From Clostridia bacterium (GTDB taxonomy: Bacteria; Bacillota; Clostridia; RUG12999), in contig JAZQCS010000121.1 in the NCBI GenBank assembly GCA_045546415.1, forward strand, positions 1 through 63,474: DNA of 63,474 bases, given 5' to 3'. The position numbers and the translations under genes are program-made. This document shows positions 8,301-44,078 of this stretch, one piece after another; position 1 is the stretch's first letter; every line of letters starts with the position of its first letter. The notes under the pieces were generated by a model, which worked only from the letters and a program-made list of their open reading frames with translations, was not told the DNA's origin and did not search any database.

Positions 8301-9197
8301 TTACACTCCCTTTCTTTCAACAAGCACTTCTTCTGCTATGTACCATTTTTCTTCCTTTGTCTTCCTTGTTAAAAGGAAACGGTATTTCAGAAGCTCGTAA
8401 GGGTTTTTTTCCAACGGAGGCGGAGCATCAAAGTTATATTTGAAGACTCCCCTGAATGTCATAAGATAGTAGTCACATTCCATAACATCATAGCCGTTTT
8501 CATAAAGCTCTTTTCCCAGAGCACTTGTTACATTTTCATTTGTAACTACAGAGGATTCAATCCAGTCTCTCTGACCGTAAGGTTCCTGACCTTCTTCCCA
8601 GTAAAAATTCTCATTCACTTCATCAAGGCTTATGTTTATGGGATTTGTGTACATATCGTGCCTGCCGCGCCAGGTATAGCCATCAATGTTGTTCTCAGCA
8701 AAAAGCTGAGCGGCATCGGTATATTCGTCATCATCTACCCAATATGTATTTGTTACCCTTAAGGTGTTGTCAATTTTAGCATCGTAAGCAGTCAGAACAT
8801 GAGCAAGCCTTTTGTGGTCACGTTCGGTAAGCTCAAGAGATTTTTTCATTTCAGGGTTTTCGGATTCACTTGCTGCAACTCTTTCCGAGGGAGGCGCCGC
8901 AACAGGTTTTATGTAGGGAGTTGCAGTTACTGCCACCGCAGTTCCCGTTGCCACAACCGAAAGTGTAACAATTGTTCCGTAAAGATGCCTGAAAAGAAAA
9001 TCCTTCAATGCATCAAAGATATCACTTTTTATTTTGTTTTCTACGCCACCCTTTGTATGTTTCTTTACAAAATCCCAAACAGGTCTGTGGCGTATTATTA
9101 TCTTCTTACCGCACTCTTCGCATATAACCGCGCTCTTTTTGTTTACGGCACCGCACACGGTACAATACTGTATTTCTTCGGTTTCAATGTTGTTCAT
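8301..9197 (-). CDS. Zinc-ribbon, single-pass membrane protein of unknown function
   Basis: CTVCGAVNKKSAVICEECG zinc ribbon, a TM helix (GTIVTLSVVATGTAVAV), and a 190-aa C-terminal domain. ATG at 9197 lies 8 nt after AGGAG; the longest-ORF GTG overlaps the RBS. Confidence 0.65.
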   Translation of the reverse strand: MNNIETEEIQYCTVCGAVNKKSAVICEECGKKIIIRHRPVWDFVKKHTKGGVENKIKSDIFDALKDFLFRHLYGTIVTLSVVATGTAVAVTATPYIKPVAAPPSERVAASESENPEMKKSLELTERDHKRLAHVLTAYDAKIDNTLRVTNTYWVDDDEYTDAAQLFAENNIDGYTWRGRHDMYTNPINISLDEVNENFYWEEGQEPYGQRDWIESSVVTNENVTSALGKELYENGYDVMECDYYLMTFRGVFKYNFDAPPPLEKNPYELLKYRFLLTRKTKEEKWYIAEEVLVERKGV

Positions 9198-9296
9198 TTG
9201 TCGCACTCCTTTCGTTTGGATTCATTGTATAAAGACTGTATAATCTAGATGCCACCGTTTTTGTTGGTAGTTCATACAAAGTTAGAACTAAAAAAA

Positions 9297-9776
9297 TCAC
9301 CATTTTCTATCTGGGCGAATATTATTCCAATAATACTTGATTTTATCACAATCAATAACCATTTGAAATTCATATGCCCAATTTTTCTTCTTTGTTGTTA
9401 CTCCGCCAAAAAATAAAACTTGATGAACCCCATTATATTGCTCATTAAACTCTATTTTCCACTCGCCTTTATTTATTTTTTTATATACTTCTTTCAATTC
9501 TACTTCTTTTCTTGTCGTGCATAAACGCTTACCAAATATATAGTGTCTTTTGAATAAATAGAACACGGATAGCTGTTCATCAAATTCAGTAATATTTATT
9601 TTTGATTTATCTGTTCTAACTGTTTCTCCGCAAGAATTATATTTTGTATCTGCCAACATCCAAAAACCATCATCAAAAGTTAAAGACAATACATCATCAA
9701 AAGCTTCTGCACTATTGACAACGCAATCATGTAAAGTTATGTATCCTTGTGCATCTTCAATACAATTTTTCCACAT
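9297..9776 (-). CDS. Hypothetical cytoplasmic protein (159 aa) in an AT-rich islet
   Basis: Clean ORF with AGGAG 9 nt upstream. I recognise no motif. Confidence 0.55.
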   Translation of the reverse strand: MWKNCIEDAQGYITLHDCVVNSAEAFDDVLSLTFDDGFWMLADTKYNSCGETVRTDKSKINITEFDEQLSVFYLFKRHYIFGKRLCTTRKEVELKEVYKKINKGEWKIEFNEQYNGVHQVLFFGGVTTKKKNWAYEFQMVIDCDKIKYYWNNIRPDRKW

Positions 9777-9849
9777 ATCTTTTTACTCCTCTTATTTCAA
9801 CAAATTTCGACAATACTTATATGATTTTGTCAAGTTAGGGACAAAAAAA

Positions 9850-10560
9850 TTATTCTTTTTCTATTTCGCTCATATAACCTGCCGTGATGATGCCTGCGGG
9901 TAAAGCAACAATAGCAATTCCAAATATTGAAGAAACCATTGTTACTATCCTTCCTATTGTTGTTACAGGATAAATATCTCCATAACCAACAGTTGTTAAT
10001 GAAACTGTTGCCCAATATATCGCATCAAAAAAGTTATTAAATGATTCAGGTTCAACATTGAAAACTACCAAAGCTGAAATTATTATGTATGCAATAGCCA
10101 AAGTCCCTACAGCAATCAATGATTCTTTTGATTTCTTAAAAACTGCTACAATAATTTTAACGTTTTTTGAGTATCTAAACATTTTAAATGCTCTGAAAAC
10201 TCTAAACGCCCTTGCCATTCTAAAAATCCTCAAAAGTTTAAAACCATTATTCAAAATAGAAATCGACGGCAAAATAGATACGATATCAATTATAGCAAAA
10301 ATACCAAATGGATATTGAACAAAAGAAACTATAGAGTTCTTATTATATTTGTAATCAGCAGTTATCCAACGTAACAAATAATCAACAATAAATACGAGCA
10401 AACAAACAGTATCAATAATAGTTAAAACATCACTCGTTTCTTTAAAGCATAGTGGTAACAAACTCAACAAGATAATCACTATCATAAAACTGTCATATAT
10501 TAAGCTAAATGTGTTGCTCTTTTGAGCTGGTTCAATTATATCAAAAATCTTCTTTCTCAT
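9850..10560 (-). CDS. Voltage-gated-type (6TM) potassium channel
   Basis: Selectivity filter TVGYGD. S4-like helix with a basic residue every third position (LRIFRMARAFRVFRAFKMFR). ATG at 10560 is preceded by GGAG; the longer ORF extension to 10677 uses TTG and lacks an RBS. Confidence 0.85.
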   Translation of the reverse strand: MRKKIFDIIEPAQKSNTFSLIYDSFMIVIILLSLLPLCFKETSDVLTIIDTVCLLVFIVDYLLRWITADYKYNKNSIVSFVQYPFGIFAIIDIVSILPSISILNNGFKLLRIFRMARAFRVFRAFKMFRYSKNVKIIVAVFKKSKESLIAVGTLAIAYIIISALVVFNVEPESFNNFFDAIYWATVSLTTVGYGDIYPVTTIGRIVTMVSSIFGIAIVALPAGIITAGYMSEIEKE

Positions 10561-10666
10561 GTATTTCTCCTTTTGGGAATTTTCTTCATCAAAGTGTTTA
10601 TAATTTTTGTCCCTTGTATATAAAACTTTAAAATTAGTGAACAATTTAGATGACACTAATTTTTTG

Positions 10667-11051
10667 TCGATATGCAAACTAAAGTTTGCTCGATATATTT
10701 ACTCCGTAAATTCGATATGTTTTTCGTTTCACTCAAAACTCGATATGATATAAATCTCGTTGCGTCAGCAACATATCGAGCCACAAGGCATATCGAGTGC
10801 AATCGCTGAATTCAAGCTTTGCTTGAATTCATTATATAATTAGGTGATAGAAAAGATGCACCTTGTTTTTAATGAATTGACAACCATGTCCTGATGCGAT
10901 GGCTAAAGCCATGAATTGTTGCTATCGCAACATGAATTGAATTGCCTTTTAATGCACGAAGTGTAATTCATGAGCCGCAGGCTCAATTCATAAAATCGCA
11001 GATTTCAATTCACGCCGAAGGCAATTCATTGATTTCATCTTCGATGAAATC
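10667..11051. repeat. Array of about 14 short hairpins, each flanked by recurring 7-nt words (TCGATAT/ATATCGA, then GAATTC/ATGAATT/AATTCAT)
   Basis: See the finding for unit-by-unit coordinates. No ORF. Lies between the terminator of the upstream gene and the Kv channel gene. Confidence 0.8.
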
Positions 11052-11059
11052 ATTATATC

Positions 11060-11099
11060 ACAAAAAACAACAAAAGGCAAGCGGTAATGCCTGCCTTTT
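11060..11099 (-). terminator. Intrinsic terminator of the GH78-like gene
   Basis: On the minus strand: aaaaggcaggc-attac-cgcttgcctttt followed by gttgtttttt. Confidence 0.75.
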
Positions 11100-11112
11100 A
11101 CATTTTTTTGCA

Positions 11113-13233
11113 TTATTTTAAGTTTACTTTTATTTCCTGCGGGTAAGTAATAACAGGGTCAGAACCTTCAGCCATGCTGCATACAATACTTCCGTAGGGT
11201 GTAATAAGCTCTGCCTTTGCCTCTCCAAGACCCAGCAAGGATGGGTCAAGGGTCACTTCCTTAAAGCCTGCTCCATTTATTTCCAGACCCAGAAGTGCTT
11301 TAGGCAACGAATACAGCGGAGTTCCGCCCCAGGCGTGACTGTAATCGAAACGGTATGAAGGCTCAGGCTTCACAAATCCTTCCACAAGACCCTTGGGGCA
11401 TTCAAGTGCTTTTTCCTTCCACATTTCAAGGGCTTTTAAAGTGTATTTTTCCCTGAGTCCGCTTTTAAAAATTGCCTCCAGCAAATAGTGGGCAAAATAG
11501 GGCTGAATATCTCCAAGCTCAGGCTGATTCATAACCTTATCGATTATATCCTTTTGCTTGTCCTTTTCGCACACACCAAAATACACCGCCAGAACATTTG
11601 AATGCTTCATGTAATACCTTTTTTCTGTATTCTGCGGCATATAATGACCAACAAGGTGTTCAGGTGTTTGTGTATTGAGGCCCTCAAAATAAAGTCCGCG
11701 ACCGGCATCAAAAAGCAATGTGTTTATTGCCTTTTTCAGATTTTCCTTTTTTGTTATACATTTTTCTGCCATAGCTGTTTCGGACAACACCGTAAATATG
11801 TCCGCTGCAGTTTTAAGTGCTCCGTAAAGAAACATATTAAGACAGGTCTGTCCCAATGCTTTTGGCGGATGGTGCATGGATATTCCGTCAATAAACAGCC
11901 AGTCAATGAACATATAATCCGGTGGATTTTCAACCAGTCCGTTATCGCCCATATAGGTTTCAAACCGGTTCAGCAGAAGAATCAGCGCATCCCGGCATTC
12001 GTATAAAAGCTCCTTATTCCCCGTGAACATATAAACATCATACAGCATCTGCACCCATATAAGGCTGTAGGTGGTATGAAACATCCTTCCATCGTTATTC
12101 CTGAGAAGCCTTGCGGTGCGTTTTACATCAAACTCCGCAAGGGACATATCCCCAAATGAAAACAGAGTCATTAGTGTTTCAATGTAATAATCCCCGGTAC
12201 AGGCAAGGGGCTCGCAATGTCTTGGGCTGTCAAGATGATGAAGCTGTCGGCAGTTTTTCAGGGTATGCCTGCATATATCAAGCACCGCATTCAACTTTGC
12301 ATCGTCGGTTACAACCGCTGCAACCTTTTCCACAGGATAAAAGGTGGAAATAAGGCTTACCGAAAACTCCGATTGCTCTGCCGAATCATTTTTAAGCAGA
12401 ACAAGAAAGCTGCCTGCGCTGTGCAATGCAAATCCGCGGTATTCACCACTTCCGGCAAAAACAAGCTTTTCCCGTGAGCCCTGTTCATCAATTTCGCTGC
12501 ATATAACCTCGGCAAATAGCTTTCCCTTTGTTTTAGCAAAGACGTGTATGAATCCGGCGTGTATTTTCTCAAAGTTTAAAACGACTTTCTTTTCTTCATA
12601 GGGCATCAGCACTATACTGTTGCTTTCAATGGGGTAAAGCTCTTTTTCGGTACGCACACGGATTGGCGCTGTTTCCGCGTGCCAGATATCGTCAACCTCC
12701 TCTGCCCCGGTATATTCAGGCAAAAAAAGACTTGAATCGTACTCATAGGGTGCTGTATAGGCGCTGTTTTTTCTTGCTTTCCAGGAGGAATCAGTTGAAA
12801 TTACCGTTTTTGTTCCGTCCTCAAAGGTAACCTCCGCCCCAAGCATAAACCCTCCGTGACCTTTGGAATATTCACATATTCTTGTCGGCATCATTTTAAC
12901 CCTTGCAAAGAAACAAATTTCCTTTGAATCCGGTTTTATTTCCTTCTGCATTTTGTAAAATTCATTTCTCTCGCGGTCGTTTCCCAGAAAATCACCACCG
13001 GCAAAAGCAGGACCTGTTGCAACAAATTTGTCATTGCAAAAAAGCTGAAACTCAGTATCTCCGCTGAATATCATATTCAGGGAAACAACCTTTTTGCCAA
13101 AACGGTATTCTTTGGTAAACTCCGCAACGGTAAAATTCCCGGCTCTTATTCCGTCAAATCCGTTGTACCGGGTTTTCTGCGATTCGGGATATTCTTTTTC
13201 CGGGAGCCATATCCATTTTTCAGGAAGCAACAT
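11113..13233 (-). CDS. GH78-related six-hairpin glycosidase (alpha-L-rhamnosidase-like), no signal peptide
   Basis: N-terminal KWIWLP...FCNDKFVATGP pattern and a degenerate catalytic-region motif LDSPRHCEPLACTGDYY. Size and layout match the 1878-3971 paralog. Confidence 0.6.
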   Translation of the reverse strand: MLLPEKWIWLPEKEYPESQKTRYNGFDGIRAGNFTVAEFTKEYRFGKKVVSLNMIFSGDTEFQLFCNDKFVATGPAFAGGDFLGNDRERNEFYKMQKEIKPDSKEICFFARVKMMPTRICEYSKGHGGFMLGAEVTFEDGTKTVISTDSSWKARKNSAYTAPYEYDSSLFLPEYTGAEEVDDIWHAETAPIRVRTEKELYPIESNSIVLMPYEEKKVVLNFEKIHAGFIHVFAKTKGKLFAEVICSEIDEQGSREKLVFAGSGEYRGFALHSAGSFLVLLKNDSAEQSEFSVSLISTFYPVEKVAAVVTDDAKLNAVLDICRHTLKNCRQLHHLDSPRHCEPLACTGDYYIETLMTLFSFGDMSLAEFDVKRTARLLRNNDGRMFHTTYSLIWVQMLYDVYMFTGNKELLYECRDALILLLNRFETYMGDNGLVENPPDYMFIDWLFIDGISMHHPPKALGQTCLNMFLYGALKTAADIFTVLSETAMAEKCITKKENLKKAINTLLFDAGRGLYFEGLNTQTPEHLVGHYMPQNTEKRYYMKHSNVLAVYFGVCEKDKQKDIIDKVMNQPELGDIQPYFAHYLLEAIFKSGLREKYTLKALEMWKEKALECPKGLVEGFVKPEPSYRFDYSHAWGGTPLYSLPKALLGLEINGAGFKEVTLDPSLLGLGEAKAELITPYGSIVCSMAEGSDPVITYPQEIKVNLK

Positions 13234-42115: not shown

Positions 42116-43780
42116 ATGAATAATAAGGCAAAGTTATTAATGTCTTTAGTTTTAACGGCAATATTGATTTGTGTATTTGCAGTTTGTGGAAGTGCAAATA
42201 CAAGTGGATCTTGTGGGGAAAATCTCAAATGGGAATTAAAAAATGGAGTGCTTTCAATAATTGGCGAAGGTGAAATGACGTATTTTGAGGTACCTCAGGA
42301 GGCACCATGGTGTTTTAATGAGCAGATTACGGAGCTTAATATAGAAGATGGTGTAACTGCAATAGGCGGATTTGGAGGCTTGCCTGCTCTTAAAAGAGTA
42401 AACATTCCGAAAACAGTAACACAGATACAACCGAATGCGTTTAGAGATTGTAGTGAGCTTGCGGATATTAGCATCCCGGACGGAGTAACTTTTATTGGAG
42501 AAAATGCCTTTGCCGAATGCGAAAAGCTTATCAACATAAATATTCCGCAAAGTGTAACGATAATACAAAAAAATGCGTTTTATAATACCGGATACTTAAA
42601 TGATGAAATGAATAATGTTGACGGAGCTTTTTATCTTGATAATTGCTTAATTAGTATAGCAGACGAAGCTGATAAAAATTTTGTGATACAGAATGGGACA
42701 AGAATGGTGGCAGACGAAACCTTTGCCTTCTTTGAGAATCTCGAATCAGTTGTAATTCCGAGTAGTGTAGAAGTAATAGGGGATGCAGCTTTTTTTGAGT
42801 GTGAAAATCTTGAATATGCGTATTACGAAGGATTGAAAAACGAATGGGAAAAGGTAAAGGTGGGTGTTAGCAATGTAGCACTCATCAATAATATCTGGTT
42901 TACAAAAGACGGAATTAAATGGAGATTATGTGAAGGAATATTGACAGTTGATGGAATGGATGGGATGGAAGGATGGACAGAGAAGGATATTCCGTGGAAA
43001 GATGAAAAAGGAAAAATAAAAAAGTTAATAGTAGCTGAAGGTATTACTGTTATAGGTATTAGTGCATTTATGGATTGTACAGAACTTGAAGAAATTAGCC
43101 TGCCAAATAGCTTGAATAAAATAAAAGCCCATGCTTTCAATAATTGTTCGAAACTTAGTAATGTTGATATTCCCGTAGGTGTAAATATTTATTACTCGGC
43201 ATTCAGAAACTGTACAGGGCTAAAAGAACTGATTATTCCTGAAGGAGTACGATTTATCGAATACGCCGCTTTTGCAGGATGTAGCGGATTGGAAAAGGTC
43301 ACCTTGCCTAAGAGCTTAAGCCAAATTGATGGTTTGCTTTTTGGAAACTGTACTGCATTAAAAGATATATATCTTCCTGAAGGAATTAAAATAATAGGCG
43401 AAATGGCCTTTAGCGGATGTACGAATCTTGAAAAAATAGTATTTCCGGAAAGTTTGAACCTTGTAAAAACTGGTGCTTTTACAGGTTCGGGAATTACTGA
43501 TGTATACTATAATGGGACAAAAAGATCCTGGGAAAAAATACAGGGCAGTGATCTTATAAATGCAGAAATACACTTTTTAAAAATTTTAGGGGATGCCGAT
43601 ATGGATGAAAGAGTTTCGGTTTTTGATGCAGTTACCATTCTCAAATATGTTGCCGGCATTGAAGAACTTAACCCGGAACAAATAGCACTTTGCGACATAA
43701 ATTGTGACAATGACCTGACAGTTTCTGATGCGGTTGAAGTGCTGAAATATGTTGCTAGATTGATTACGGATTTTCAATGA
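42116..43780 (+). CDS. Secreted BspA-type leucine-rich-repeat protein with a C-terminal type-I dockerin
   Basis: Signal peptide. Repeated I(P/S)..V..I...AF..C..L LRR_5 units. C-terminal duplicated Ca-binding loops GDADMDERVSVFDAVTILKYV / CDINCDNDLTVSDAVEVLKYV. Confidence 0.85.
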   Translation: MNNKAKLLMSLVLTAILICVFAVCGSANTSGSCGENLKWELKNGVLSIIGEGEMTYFEVPQEAPWCFNEQITELNIEDGVTAIGGFGGLPALKRVNIPKTVTQIQPNAFRDCSELADISIPDGVTFIGENAFAECEKLININIPQSVTIIQKNAFYNTGYLNDEMNNVDGAFYLDNCLISIADEADKNFVIQNGTRMVADETFAFFENLESVVIPSSVEVIGDAAFFECENLEYAYYEGLKNEWEKVKVGVSNVALINNIWFTKDGIKWRLCEGILTVDGMDGMEGWTEKDIPWKDEKGKIKKLIVAEGITVIGISAFMDCTELEEISLPNSLNKIKAHAFNNCSKLSNVDIPVGVNIYYSAFRNCTGLKELIIPEGVRFIEYAAFAGCSGLEKVTLPKSLSQIDGLLFGNCTALKDIYLPEGIKIIGEMAFSGCTNLEKIVFPESLNLVKTGAFTGSGITDVYYNGTKRSWEKIQGSDLINAEIHFLKILGDADMDERVSVFDAVTILKYVAGIEELNPEQIALCDINCDNDLTVSDAVEVLKYVARLITDFQ

Positions 43781-43849: not shown

Positions 43850-43878
43850 TTGACAACCGGCAAAAAAAGTGCTAAAAT
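43850..43878 (+). promoter_or_regulatory. Consensus-like sigma-A promoter (upstream of a second one)
   Basis: TTGACA (43850-43855), a 17-nt spacer, then TAAAAT (43873-43878). Confidence 0.55.
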
Positions 43879-43997
43879 TAATATCACCACAACAAAATTT
43901 GCTGTCGAGGCGGGGGTCTTAGCGTTAGTGCAGGGTCTTCGTCTTTTTTTATGAAAAAAAACGCTGTGAACATTTTGTTAAATCGCGGTGAAAAAGC

Positions 43998-44026
43998 TTG
44001 ACATCTGTGGTAAATTGGTGTATAAT
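43998..44026 (+). promoter_or_regulatory. Sigma-A promoter of the 44079 gene
   Basis: TTGACA (43998-44003), a 17-nt spacer, then TATAAT (44021-44026). Confidence 0.7.
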
Positions 44027-44078
44027 CTAAAATAGTTTGTTTAACTTAATTTAAATAAAAAAGAAATGAGGTCTTAAA

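Follow-up and report, generated by a model that had tools for sequence, protein, structure and literature searches.

Background

Pneumococcal BOX elements, Correia, ERIC and RUP elements and MITEs are small dispersed repeats that occupy intergenic regions in many copies, near genes. Repeated short motifs are also found in RNAs read by homo-oligomeric proteins, such as the trp leader with the TRAP 11-mer and CsrB and RsmZ with CsrA, and in the type III toxin-antitoxin system ToxIN identical ToxI repeats of 34-36 nt are followed by a terminator, the protein being an endoribonuclease. Stand-alone proteins of the PF05635 family, Avd-like four-helix bundles that also go by the name '23S rRNA intervening sequence' proteins, are widespread, and to our knowledge this family has no role outside diversity-generating retroelements (DGRs) and no known nuclease fold. 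Avd, the DGR protein of the same family, is a barrel-shaped oligomer over which a structured RNA is laid to form a ribonucleoprotein (10.1101/2023.10.23.563531), and DGR targets need a DNA hairpin or cruciform whose GC-rich stem is variable and whose GRNA loop is conserved (PMC3240598).

The closest described relative of the locus presented here is the RNA motif Gut-1 (Rfam RF01706), in which short variable hairpins stand between recurrences, usually four, of a purine-rich word, and which shares with this locus its habitat in gut Clostridia. As published (Weinberg et al. 2010, PMC2864571), Gut-1 covers only what we call below the W half, comes from unassigned gut reads, and was scored 'Y' as an RNA and 'n' as a cis-regulatory one, that is, as a free small RNA of unknown function. 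In the literature that we searched, a single paper mentions the motif.

Results and Discussion

The window (the whole stretch of 63,474 nucleotides that was analysed, from a Clostridia bacterium contig) contains a single array of short words and small hairpins, at 10667-11051. The words and all the 13 hairpins listed in the original prediction are present. TCGATAT occurs at 10667, 10690, 10712 and 10740 (four of the five copies in the 63-kb window), ATATCGA at 10773 and 10790 (two of three), TGAATTG at 10873, 10912, 10933 and 10938 (four of six), CAATTCA at 10984, 11006 and 11022 (three of five), AATTCAT at 10965, 10985 and 11023, and GAATTC at 10808 and 10825. The spacing of the words is irregular, at 16-28 nt, and Tandem Repeats Finder did not detect the array because only 7-9 nt per unit recur. 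Counting only hairpins without mismatches, of at least 5 bp in the stem and 2-4 nt in the loop, we found nine in 10660-11058 versus 2.13±1.47 in 5000 dinucleotide shuffles, only two of which reached nine, and we regard the array as real; the mean across the window is 1.7±1.3 per 400 nt. The folding z-scores of 10562-11112 were -6.45 for the minus and -6.99 for the plus strand. The region had been described as free of ORFs, and although mechanical ORFs of 40-59 aa exist in it, no support for their being coding was found. A second hairpin-rich stretch, at 43.6-44.1 kb, proved to be a gene end plus promoters plus acidic repeats with no word array.

The array consists of two tandem, partly decayed copies of a modular dispersed element of ~190-240 nt, both on the minus strand and pointing towards the Kv-channel gene (Table 1). 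Each module is bounded by TATAAT boxes and runs from a hairpin adjoining TATAAT, through units of a word (W) plus a mini-hairpin, to a centre, and then through units of a mini-hairpin plus a second word (W') to a conserved 3' block. W' is the reverse complement of W and both are present inside each module, as UGAAUUG and CAAUUCA in module 1 and as UCGAUAU and AUAUCGA in module 2. The W-then-W' order in two modules and the TATAAT bounds had escaped the earlier description. The terminator of the upstream gene marks the 5' limit of the array unit.

Table 1. Features of the array and its surroundings, with their positions in the window
Feature	Positions	Strand	Remarks
Intrinsic terminator of upstream glycosidase-like gene (11113-13233)	11070-11101	-	13-bp stem, then T run; gene by Pfam
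Sigma-A-type promoter	11052-11080	-	-35 TTGCCT (11075-11080), 17-nt spacer, extended -10 TGATATAAT (11052-11060)
Module 1 leader hairpin, TGATTTCATC-GAA-GATGAAATCA	11030-11052	-	Abuts -10 box; identical in at least 118 loci
Module 1 W half	10955-11029	-	Full-length Gut-1 alignment, 26.5 bits
Module 1 W words	AUGAAUUG 11022-11029; GUGAAUUG 11006-11013; AUGAAUUG 10984-10991; CAUGAAUU 10965-10972	-	
Module 1 W-half mini-hairpins	11014-11022, 10993-11005, 10971-10985, 10955-10963	-	Loops UUC, UGC, UGC, UUC
Module 1 centre, CAUUAAAAGGCAAUUCA	10938-10954	-	
Module 1 W' half	10873-10944	-	CAAUUCA at 10938-10944, 10933-10939, 10912-10918, 10873-10879
Module 1 W'-half hairpins	10917-10932, 10899-10912	-	
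Module 1 3' block, AAGGTGCATCTTTTCTATCACCTAATTATATAAT	10831-10864	-	Final TATAAT abuts module 2 leader hairpin
Module 2 leader hairpin, TGAATTCAAGC-AAA-GCTTGAATTCA	10807-10831	-	Covarying leader variant
Module 2 W half, truncated, 2 units	10759-10798	-	CUCGAUAUG at 10789-10798, 10772-10781
Module 2 W-half hairpins	10780-10789, 10759-10772	-	
Module 2 centre, GAGAUUUAUAUC	10747-10758	-	Conserved in T family; complementary to W1 plus hairpin-1 arm of full copies
Module 2 W' half	10667-10747	-	AUAUCGA at 10740-10746, 10712-10718, 10690-10696, 10667-10673
Module 2 W'-half hairpins	10719-10739, 10697-10711, 10674-10689	-	
Module 2 3' block, TCATCTAAATTGTTCACTAATTT (10631-10653) in 10-bp inverted repeat	10630-10663	-	
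Kv gene, 236-aa voltage-gated-type K+ channel (Ion_trans)	9850-10574	-	RBS AAAAGGAG and ATG at 10558-10574

Within module 1, AAGGCAAUUCA (10938-10948) is perfectly complementary over its 11 nt to W1 together with the 5' arm of hairpin 1 (11018-11028), and this W1:centre helix is the one chosen by RNAalifold in 11 copies of the E family (the relatives of module 1). The third W' unit of the same module (10880-10898) is decayed, with CCATCGCATCAGGACAT where the family consensus has CCAATTCATGACAACG. Module 2 is identical in 169 of 172 nt (98%) to the copy L117, which stands before an unrelated gene. The 3' block type of module 1 also closes many copies of the E family and of the T family (the relatives of module 2), and that of module 2 is present also upstream of Kv orthologues that have no array. 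The stem of the leader hairpin covaries among variant leaders, and the locus L095 carries an intermediate one, GATTTCAAGC-AAA-GCTTGAAATC. Inspection by eye of the 3' block gave no convincing fit to a sigma-A, sigma-54 or sporulation-sigma promoter or to a cre site, and its pairing with the 3' arm of the leader was inconsistent between variants.

The view that no described element has this organisation did not hold, as the 5' half of the element has the plan of Gut-1. Module 1 displays four words (A/G)UGAAUU(G) with hairpins between them, as that plan requires (at least three hairpins), and 10960-11031 of the minus strand aligns with the full model (1-77) at 26.5 bits (E = 0.005); the gathering score of Gut-1 is 50 bits, and no match at that level was found anywhere in the window. 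The consensus word of Gut-1 is xUGAAAU, whereas those found here are UGAAUUG and UCGAUAU, the module 1 word representing an A-to-U change plus a G. True matches were obtained in the copy L041 (56 bits) and in 18 of the 20 PF05635 loci tested (51-80 bits), in the latter 130-230 nt ahead of the PF05635 start codons. The true Gut-1 copies stand in tandem with family members, and the Gut-1 seed sequences themselves have a W' half downstream. The published Gut-1 motif is half of a mirror-symmetric word-and-hairpin module, and the W' half, the word families, the promoter, the dispersal before other genes and the link to PF05635 go beyond what was published.

The original classing of Gut-1 as not cis-regulatory (PMC2864571) would suit a free-standing, trans-acting small RNA, for example a multi-site sponge for a protein or for the W' arrays of other transcripts, that exerts no action on the Kv gene. 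The same applies to the L041 Gut-1 copy, which has its own terminator and lacks the W' half, and to the tandem arrays with a 240-nt period in the Gut-1 seed alignment. We consider this improbable, however, since no terminator was found between the window modules and the Kv gene, 85% of the copies point at a close downstream gene, and true Gut-1 matches precede the PF05635 genes at the distance given above.

An exact scan yielded at least 118 loci in 88 metagenome-assembled genomes (MAGs) of gut Clostridia, with up to five per MAG. The element is dispersed in the genomes of gut Clostridia (Oscillospiraceae and relatives). There are at least eight word families, and W and W' are complementary in all eight (TCGATAT, GCGATAT, TGAATTG, GTGAAGT, AGCTAAA, ACATCATT, GTGATAT and GTGAAAT), and the words are invariant within one family. 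The modal unit count is four W plus four W', and the number of units varies from two to four W and reaches at least eight in L144. Copies from one genome show 64-100% identity and have unrelated flanks, and contig ends fall within the element. At orthologous loci, the promoter and the leader are common and the interior has been exchanged or lost. In view of the unrelated -35 regions and spacers that precede identical copies, we considered whether entire elements had been inserted into existing promoters. This was contradicted by the orthologue pair L014/L111 and by L133, where promoter and leader are shared and the interior alone differs, and exchange between conserved ends therefore better explains the sharp boundaries. 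No terminal inverted repeats were found, and the 3' block is not the leader hairpin in inverted form. As to a target-site duplication, L117 has TACAAT on both sides, but L105 has TAAAAT and TATAAT.

The element resembles the BOX type of repeat in being built of modules, with internal units that vary in number between conserved ends, in folding strongly and in having no transposase of its own. BOX-type repeats are also co-transcribed with their neighbours, as the array may be. In contrast with them, the units of the array differ in their stems and have in common only a word of 7-9 nt, the halves are mirror images, and the copies stand precisely behind sigma-A promoters, with neither inverted ends nor duplicated targets. 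A dispersed repeat that is selfish or neutral, BOX- or MITE-like, multiplied and homogenised by gene conversion or some route of transposition, tolerated near promoters and with a structure serving its own spread, would account for the many copies per genome with unrelated flanks and for the contig breaks inside them, for copies 98% identical before unrelated genes, and for the variable unit number and the interiors swapped or lost at orthologous loci. It would also agree with the lack of a common functional theme among the downstream genes and with the partial decay of the window copies, and the 23S rRNA intervening sequence that carries S23p has been described as a selfish element (PMC4990558). 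Nevertheless, the ±3 kb around the copies shows no enrichment of transposase, integrase or reverse transcriptase genes, the element lacks terminal inverted repeats and a consistent target duplication, the copies are strictly placed and oriented with respect to promoters and genes, and words, loop classes and pairing are under strong purifying selection, all of which makes this explanation unlikely.

The promoter in the window matches the consensus at 10 of 12 positions and has in addition the TG. In 118 unique upstream flanks, the only conserved features are TTG at -35 (99, 98 and 95 of 118), TRTG and TATAAT; the 17-nt spacer is not conserved. Of 88 nearest downstream ORFs, 75 (85%) shared the strand of the copy and 13 lay on the other one, with a median gap of 113 nt. 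Among the roles proposed for the array in the original prediction, a structured leader of the Kv gene came closest, as there is a sigma-A promoter upstream and no terminator before the gene, but the element is not Kv-specific because the dispersed family precedes many unrelated genes. Neither the Kv channel nor the upstream glycosidase had a match when looked up as an exact protein, and a weak K_chan_RES match inside the Kv gene (E = 0.13) was attributed to chance.

The other roles proposed were a rolling-circle or transfer origin, an IS200/IS605- or attC-like substrate, and a plasmid-type iteron or centromere array. They would find a basis in the many small GNA-loop hairpins on one strand of module 1 and in the short words repeated at 16-28-nt spacing. 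They are largely refuted, however, and we regard them as very improbable. No relaxase, Rep, integrase or TnpA gene was found in the window or within ±3 kb of ~110 copies, and no Par gene in the neighbourhood of the array or near those copies; searches of viral contigs, phages and plasmids gave no match to the element. The hairpin grammar lies on opposite strands in the two halves, unlike the single-strand substrates of attC and IS200/IS605, and the irregular word spacing and the neighbours, a glycosidase-like gene and a K+ channel, provide no contextual support for an iteron or centromere.

The constancy of the words around variable cores had been taken as a sign of selection for structure, and the alignments bear this out. 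In 28 related T-family copies, 99.6% of cells are paired, and 11 stem pairs are altered in both partners with pairing preserved, a number that none of 500 shuffles reached; slid controls gave at most three both-side changes. Only one pair changes on both sides in the E family, because there is little variation in it. One-sided stem changes produced G·U on the minus (sense) strand at 11 pair positions and A·C at two. The full ladder, from W1:W'4 to W4:W'1, was obtained for T-type copies with RNAalifold and in 15 of 18 single-sequence folds, with long-range pairs that add -19.5 kcal/mol on average. The E family favours the W1:centre closing helix over the ladder, so that the pairing register is not fixed, and a flank-extension test of the nested register was neutral.

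The explanation that we prefer, to which we would give about even chances, is that the array is transcribed as a leader RNA and that a cognate oligomeric partner reads its words, the copies in the window being orphans. The element would be transcribed on the minus strand within the 5' leader of the Kv-channel mRNA. The RNA would fold its mini-hairpins, and W would pair with W' in a ladder of short helices with flanking hairpins or, alternatively, W1 with the centre in a closing helix. Since the words are identical within an element while the stems drift, we infer a sequence-specific reading by a factor made of multiple equal subunits. Against this explanation, the leader hairpin begins 0-1 nt past the -10 box, so near that a normal start (~7 nt downstream) falls inside its 5' arm and RNA from its own promoter cannot form the hairpin; the unfixed pairing register tells against it as well.

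When 993 ORFs lying up to 3 kb on either side of the copies were clustered, PF05635 was the only recurrent neighbour. In a first set of loci, 23 of 24 PF05635 genes had an array at most 330 nt upstream, and subtypes corresponded 1:1 to words; an independent, protein-anchored metagenome set yielded 39 arrays for 44 unique upstream regions. The Q[LIF]ERS clade was paired with xTGAAAT in all 25 cases. These data show a tight, word-specific linkage of arrays to PF05635 genes elsewhere, with one word per protein clade, although the protein-word match is equally expected from plain co-inheritance of gene and leader. In the PF05635-linked copies only the RBS stands between the last W' and the start codon, and the array must therefore be inside that mRNA. 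The closest solved homologue of these proteins, 2RLD, has five chains in its single entry. No PF05635 gene was detected in the 63-kb window by tblastn, which tells against this partner; the window copies are orphans.

The best candidate reader would thus be a cognate PF05635 oligomer, which would control its own mRNA at 'master' copies, and either control or just tolerate orphan copies such as the two before the Kv gene. Copying or gene conversion may have spread the orphans and exchanged them between their conserved ends, the leader hairpin and the 3' block. A more specific proposal, which we put forward only tentatively and find possible rather than probable, is that of orthogonal pairs, each PF05635 clade reading its own word of 7-9 nt, shown 4-5 times between C-G-closed GNA-loop mini-hairpins in the RNA, and perhaps also in extruded DNA; masters would autoregulate, and orphans would wire unrelated genes, e.g. 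that of the Kv channel, into the circuit. Such pairs would resemble TRAP and CsrA systems in that several copies of a short motif follow one another closely in a leader or sRNA, in a number near that of the subunits, with an effect that would be autoregulatory or titrating, but the TRAP and CsrA motifs are of 3-5 nt and have no antisense copy in cis, whereas the array words have their complement in the same molecule. The order of promoter, structured RNA repeat array and small protein gene, whose product is a putative repeat binder, is reminiscent of ToxIN, from which the array is set apart by units that differ in sequence. With the DGR Avd system it shares the protein family and variable-stem hairpins with G..A loops. 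Nonetheless, no reverse transcriptase, template repeat or variable repeat was found near ~110 copies, and, in contrast to the DGR target hairpin, the hairpins here measure 3-7 bp, are numerous in each element and stand together with repeated words.

The linkage brings together two orphans, the Gut-1 RNA motif (an orphan since 2010) and the stand-alone PF05635 proteins, and their function can now be tested by simple binding and reporter experiments. If true, the orthogonal pairs would be the first function for both. For the window itself the message is modest: two orphan copies of a dispersed leader cassette, both in partial decay, precede a Kv gene.

For specialists in RNA and DNA structure the element poses a puzzle, as its words are identical, its loop types mirrored and its stems drifting. 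The loops of the W half were of the U..C type in 70 cases and of the G..A type in none, and those of the W' half G..A in 71 and U..C in two (Fisher p = 4e-39), nearly all of them closed by C-G. The GAA and GCA triloops previously pointed out are indeed present on the plus strand, but they are confined to one half of module 1. There is no obvious reason for mirrored loop types in a single transcript, and kissing of U..C with G..A loops was discarded, as no complementarity exists between the loops of hairpins that are partners within an element. Among DNA mini-hairpins, C[GAA]G and C[GCA]G are classic loops of high stability. Stems of nearly pure Watson-Crick pairing, in which G·U is almost absent, are unusual for RNA.

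These observations favour the main rival, which we judge to be rather unlikely on the whole: a site in the DNA with dyad symmetry, at which local palindromes are extruded as hairpins or cruciforms, or fold when single-stranded. In the left half, the units of a C-G-closed GNA-loop hairpin plus a word would be on the bottom strand, and in the right half on the top one; a protein, possibly a PF05635 oligomer, would read these units and so control the adjacent promoters or copy the cassette. The leader hairpin abutting the -10 box is in keeping with this, and so is the W' half of L151, which scores as a reverse-strand Gut-1. At classical Gut-1-type loci the array starts 2 nt after the terminator that ends tRNA gene arrays, with no visible promoter in front, and at some of them TGnTATAAT lies between the array and the PF05635 gene, as would also suit a DNA site. 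The hairpin or cruciform of DGR targets provides a precedent in the Avd system (PMC3240598). Against the DNA site, a sigma-A promoter reads into the array in the 118 flanks, the array is necessarily within the mRNA in many PF05635 loci, and the one-sided changes favour sense-strand G·U (11 versus 2 positions). Moreover, plain duplex binding would give the variable palindromic spacers no role, and stems of 3-7 bp are short for cruciform extrusion.

Regarding the composition of the stems, 288 of 424 distinct inter-word segments had perfect hairpins, with an internal G·U in five and an internal A·C in one. A crude scan for G·U versus A·C had given 18 versus 11, a difference that was not significant in a noisy scan, and its segment-based repeat brought out chiefly the rarity of any mismatch.

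Array anatomy

The intergenic region 10561-11112 is bounded by two minus-strand genes and contains a 385-bp array (10667-11051) of 7-nt words (W), their reverse complements (W') and mini-hairpins. The word positions of the original prediction were all correct, its 13 listed hairpins were all found in the sequence, and the words are concentrated in this array, which holds four of the five TCGATAT copies of the 63-kb window. When perfect hairpins were counted as stems of at least 5 bp with loops of 2-4 nt, the array had nine versus 2.13±1.47 in shuffled controls (2 of 5000 dinucleotide shuffles reached nine), and both strands folded far better than their shuffles (z = -6.5 and -7.0). The two word families described earlier are the W/W' pairs of two tandem modules directed towards the gene of a voltage-gated-type K+ channel (Kv). 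This is the only array locus in the window.

Features of the array and its surroundings (window positions, unless a related locus L in another genome is named)
Feature	Position	Strand
Glycosidase-like gene (upstream neighbour)	11113-13233	minus
Terminator of upstream gene	11070-11101	minus
Sigma-A-type promoter TTGCCT-17-TGATATAAT	between upstream terminator and module 1 leader	minus
Module 1 leader hairpin	11030-11052	minus
Module 1 W half: four 'xUGAAUUG + mini-hairpin' units, then centre		minus
Module 1 W' half: 'mini-hairpin + CAAUUCA' units		minus
Module 1 3' block, terminal TATAAT	10831-10864	minus
Module 2 variant leader hairpin	10807-10831	minus
Module 2 W half: two CUCGAUAUG units		minus
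Module 2 centre GAGAUUUAUAUC		minus
Module 2 W' half: four AUAUCGA units		minus
Module 2 3' block (second 3' block)	10631-10653	minus
RBS and ATG of Kv gene	after module 2 3' block	minus
Kv gene, 236 aa (downstream neighbour)	9850-10560	minus
3' block in other genomes	L001 2795-2825; L007 2900-2935; L008 2935-2965; L127 2300-2335	

The GC content is 31-32% at 9000-11000 versus about 42% in the rest of the window, and this low-GC stretch spans the array, the Kv gene and two ORFs that were assigned to no family (9297-9776 and 8301-9206, the latter with a weak zinc-ribbon match). By raw hairpin count, segments 43580-43780 and 43850-44030 equal the array, yet they lack recurring words; there, a gene ends in dockerin-like calcium-binding repeats, and beyond it lie two canonical TTGACA/TATAAT promoters and then a gene that carries acidic EEV repeats. 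A weak Rfam match to the eukaryotic potassium-channel RNA editing signal (RF00485) within the Kv coding sequence (9877-9990, minus; 23.7 bits, E = 0.13) is almost certainly due to chance.

A dispersed, promoter-linked family

Relatives of the Kv protein were Oscillospiraceae or Clostridia MAG proteins, and the orthologous locus L001-L004 carries the leader hairpin of the window but the words GCGAUAU/AUAUCGC. An exact scan of species-representative genomes with the 21-nt leader yielded at least 118 stretches; every match listed came from a gut Clostridia MAG, a single MAG having as many as five loci, and several contigs break off within the element. Among these listed matches, the word families were TCGATAT, GCGATAT, TGAATTG, GTGAAGT and AGCTAAA, and four W plus four W' was the commonest unit count. 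Module 2 is identical to L117 at 169 of 172 positions and module 1 shares about 90% identity with L040 and L100, each of the three copies being in front of a different gene. One locus (L144 870-1150) bears an expanded array of at least eight tandem 'CATGAATTG + hairpin' units, and another (L148 990-1190) is a hybrid, its W half being of the GCGATAT type and its W' half of the AATTCAT type.

Only three features are conserved across 118 unique upstream flanks of the leader: TTG at -27 to -25 (in 99, 98 and 95 of them), T-R-T-G at -9 to -6 and TATA(AT) at -4 to +2. Judged by sequence, this is the Firmicute promoter TTGnnn-17-TRTGnTATAAT with an unconserved spacer. Among the matches listed, the nearest downstream ORF was co-oriented in 75 cases versus opposite in 13 (median gap 113 nt), and the downstream genes were diverse. 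The promoter pattern and the co-oriented ORFs are evidence for transcription towards the gene. The earlier proposal of a structured 5' leader of the Kv gene is partly borne out, but the element is dispersed before diverse genes; those of a single-stranded-DNA, transfer or recombination site and of an iteron or centromere found no support, and phage, plasmid and viral collections gave no match to the element.

The leader hairpin begins 0-1 nt past the -10 hexamer (window 11030-11060 and 10807-10836; all loci L009-L126), so that transcription starting at the usual distance would begin within its 5' arm and the whole hairpin would be impossible in such an RNA. Its stem still covaries among variants (GATTTCATC, GATTTCAAGC, GAATTCAAGC, GAGTTTGC, GAATTCAAT, AGATTTAAC), which does not fit a simple RNA leader. 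The other end of most modules is a conserved 3' block, (G)GCATCTAAATYGTTCACTRATTYTATAAT, with TATAAT at its end and then the next leader or gene; it also stands alone upstream of array-less Kv orthologues. No sigma-A -35 box was found in the block, whose hairpin potential is not conserved, and a different sigma factor may use it as a promoter.

Hairpin covariation and word pairing

In 28 copies of the T family (word TCGATAT), 99.6% of the predicted-structure cells were paired. The compensatory stem changes anticipated in the original prediction were present: 11 pairs, all within mini-hairpins, had changed on both sides, a number reached by 0 of 500 shuffles, and slid controls gave at most three. 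The local mini-hairpins can be regarded as demonstrated. The words are invariant within each family, and within-family data are therefore silent on their pairing. Nevertheless, W and W' are exact complements in all eight families, including ACATCATT/AATGATGT (L128) and the words of the Gut-1 RNA motif, and RNAalifold predicted for the T family a ladder (W1:W'4, W2:W'3, W3:W'2, W4:W'1) with which 15 of 18 single-sequence folds agreed. Since a hairpin lies on either side between rungs, these would be linked via stacked four-way junctions, and the mean contribution of the long-range pairs is 19.5 kcal/mol. Alternatively, the centre can pair in all families with W1 and the adjoining 5' arm of hairpin 1, a complementarity that covaries with hairpin 1 (GATATAAATCTC/GAGATTTATATC versus GATATGAATTC/GAATTCATATC); this closing helix is preferred by the E family (TGAATTG) and by module 1 (11018-11028 with 10938-10948). 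From these models we infer long-range word pairing, as ladder or closing helix.

The stems are almost purely Watson-Crick (among 424 distinct inter-word segments, 288 had perfect hairpins, and internal G·U occurred in five and A·C in one), which is unusual for an RNA; however, the one-sided changes in the aligned T family yielded 11 G·U positions and two A·C positions. Loop types are mirrored, with 70 U..C and no G..A in the W half versus 71 G..A and two U..C in the W' half (Fisher p = 4e-39), and C-G closes nearly all loops. Read as 'C[GNA]G hairpin + word', the unit thus switches strand between the W half and the W' half, and the plus-strand GAA and GCA triloops noticed at the outset, although present, are one side of these mirrored classes.

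Gut-1 and the PF05635 partner

The sole notable Rfam match was Gut-1 (RF01706; 10960-11031, minus, full model; 26.5 bits against a threshold of 50, E = 0.005). No described element had been thought to have this organisation, but Gut-1, with a word-hairpin-word consensus (xUGAAAU), is a described relative, found in 'human gut only' and with no function assigned (Weinberg et al. 2010, PMC2864571). In those authors' own alignment, several seed flanks run on into a reverse-complement word array (for example, three to four GUGAUAU, then four AUAUCAC). Gut-1 matches repeat in tandem with a 240-nt period, and a W' half scores as reverse-strand Gut-1 (L151). Gut-1 was above the Rfam threshold in 18 of 20 loci tested, on the gene's strand and 130-230 nt before the start codon of a PF05635 gene; L173 is one of Weinberg's seed sequences, and GTGATAT and xTGAAAT are the classical Gut-1 words. 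The element is a variant of Gut-1, a motif known but without assigned function, while the searchable literature appears to contain no description of the mirror-symmetric module, of the word families, of the link to promoters or of the obligate pairing between true Gut-1 arrays and PF05635 genes.

In ten or more loci listed here (L151, L158, L163, L170-L173, L180, L199, L217; about 100-350 nt upstream of the match), a tRNA gene array has a classical Gut-1 array and its PF05635 gene at its 3' end, with five consecutive tRNA genes ahead of the array in L171. These arrays start 2 nt past the T run of the terminator with no promoter visible, and the array-to-gene interval of Gut-1-type loci has TGnTATAAT in some and an RBS alone in others. 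Taken together, these arrangements, the position of the leader hairpin, the Watson-Crick stems and the mirrored loops keep a DNA-level or two-strand function in play.

The PF05635 protein (about 116 aa; '23S rRNA intervening sequence protein', Avd-like) was the sole recurrent neighbour among 993 ORFs near the loci listed, its gene beginning just past the array. In the first locus set, 23 of 24 PF05635 genes, a count that takes in bystander genes with other leader hairpins not selected via the leader pattern, had an array at most 330 nt upstream, and protein subtype matched word strictly (G, GCGATAT, 9/9 loci; T, TCGATAT, 6/6; E, TGAATTG, 5/5; A, AGCTAAA, 3/3). The lone array-less gene (L127 1277-1636) is a distant relative (45% identity) preceded by a 106-aa ORF; it is divergent from a Kv orthologue that bears its own AGCTAAA-type module. 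An independent protein-anchored metagenome scan (80 loci, 49-87% identity) found arrays in 39 of 44 unique upstream regions, with GTGATAT in 28 of the 30 members of a human-gut cluster and xTGAAAT in 25/25 of a clade with the Q[LIF]ERS motif. The 63-kb window has no PF05635 gene, and its two modules are orphans.

The mini-hairpins drift freely via compensatory change while the six to eight words per element remain identical, even across copies with diverged hairpins and diverged linked proteins. Pairing alone would let each rung drift. A sequence-specific reader with several equal subunits would keep the words identical, and the obvious candidate is the linked oligomeric PF05635 protein. Among solved structures its closest homologue is 2RLD, the single entry of which has five chains; Avd is a barrel with structured RNA lying over it (10.1101/2023.10.23.563531), and DGR targets require a hairpin or cruciform whose stem varies and whose GRNA loop is conserved (PMC3240598). 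The clade-word match would also be expected from plain co-inheritance, and the word-reading partner is thus one that we infer. As a best estimate, we give an even chance to a transcribed leader putatively read by a cognate PF05635 oligomer, and rank below it a DNA-level function, which seems unlikely, and a purely selfish repeat, which seems more unlikely still.

Spread and exchange of interiors

No transposase, integrase or reverse transcriptase was enriched among the 993 nearby ORFs, and the related loci compared showed neither inverted termini nor a consistent target duplication. The regions upstream of Kv orthologues differ in content by lineage: the window has E and T modules, L001 has a G module together with PF05635, L127 has an AGCTAAA module, L128 has a ACATCATT array, the W/W' stem of L007 has three hairpins, and L008 and L129/L130 have no array. 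Two loci with 93%-identical epimerases have the promoter flank and leader in common, one with a full T ladder as interior and the other with just one word and a degenerate 3' block. The sharp boundaries of sequence similarity are best accounted for if the interior, flanked by the conserved leader and 3' block, is exchanged or lost, as gene conversion among copies would do. Small GC-rich palindromes that start with GTAGGG (REP-like) form a second family, inserted within or just past arrays (L109 at about 870-970, L103, L105, L124, L127 2203-2262, and after the 3' block in L033, L126 and L011).
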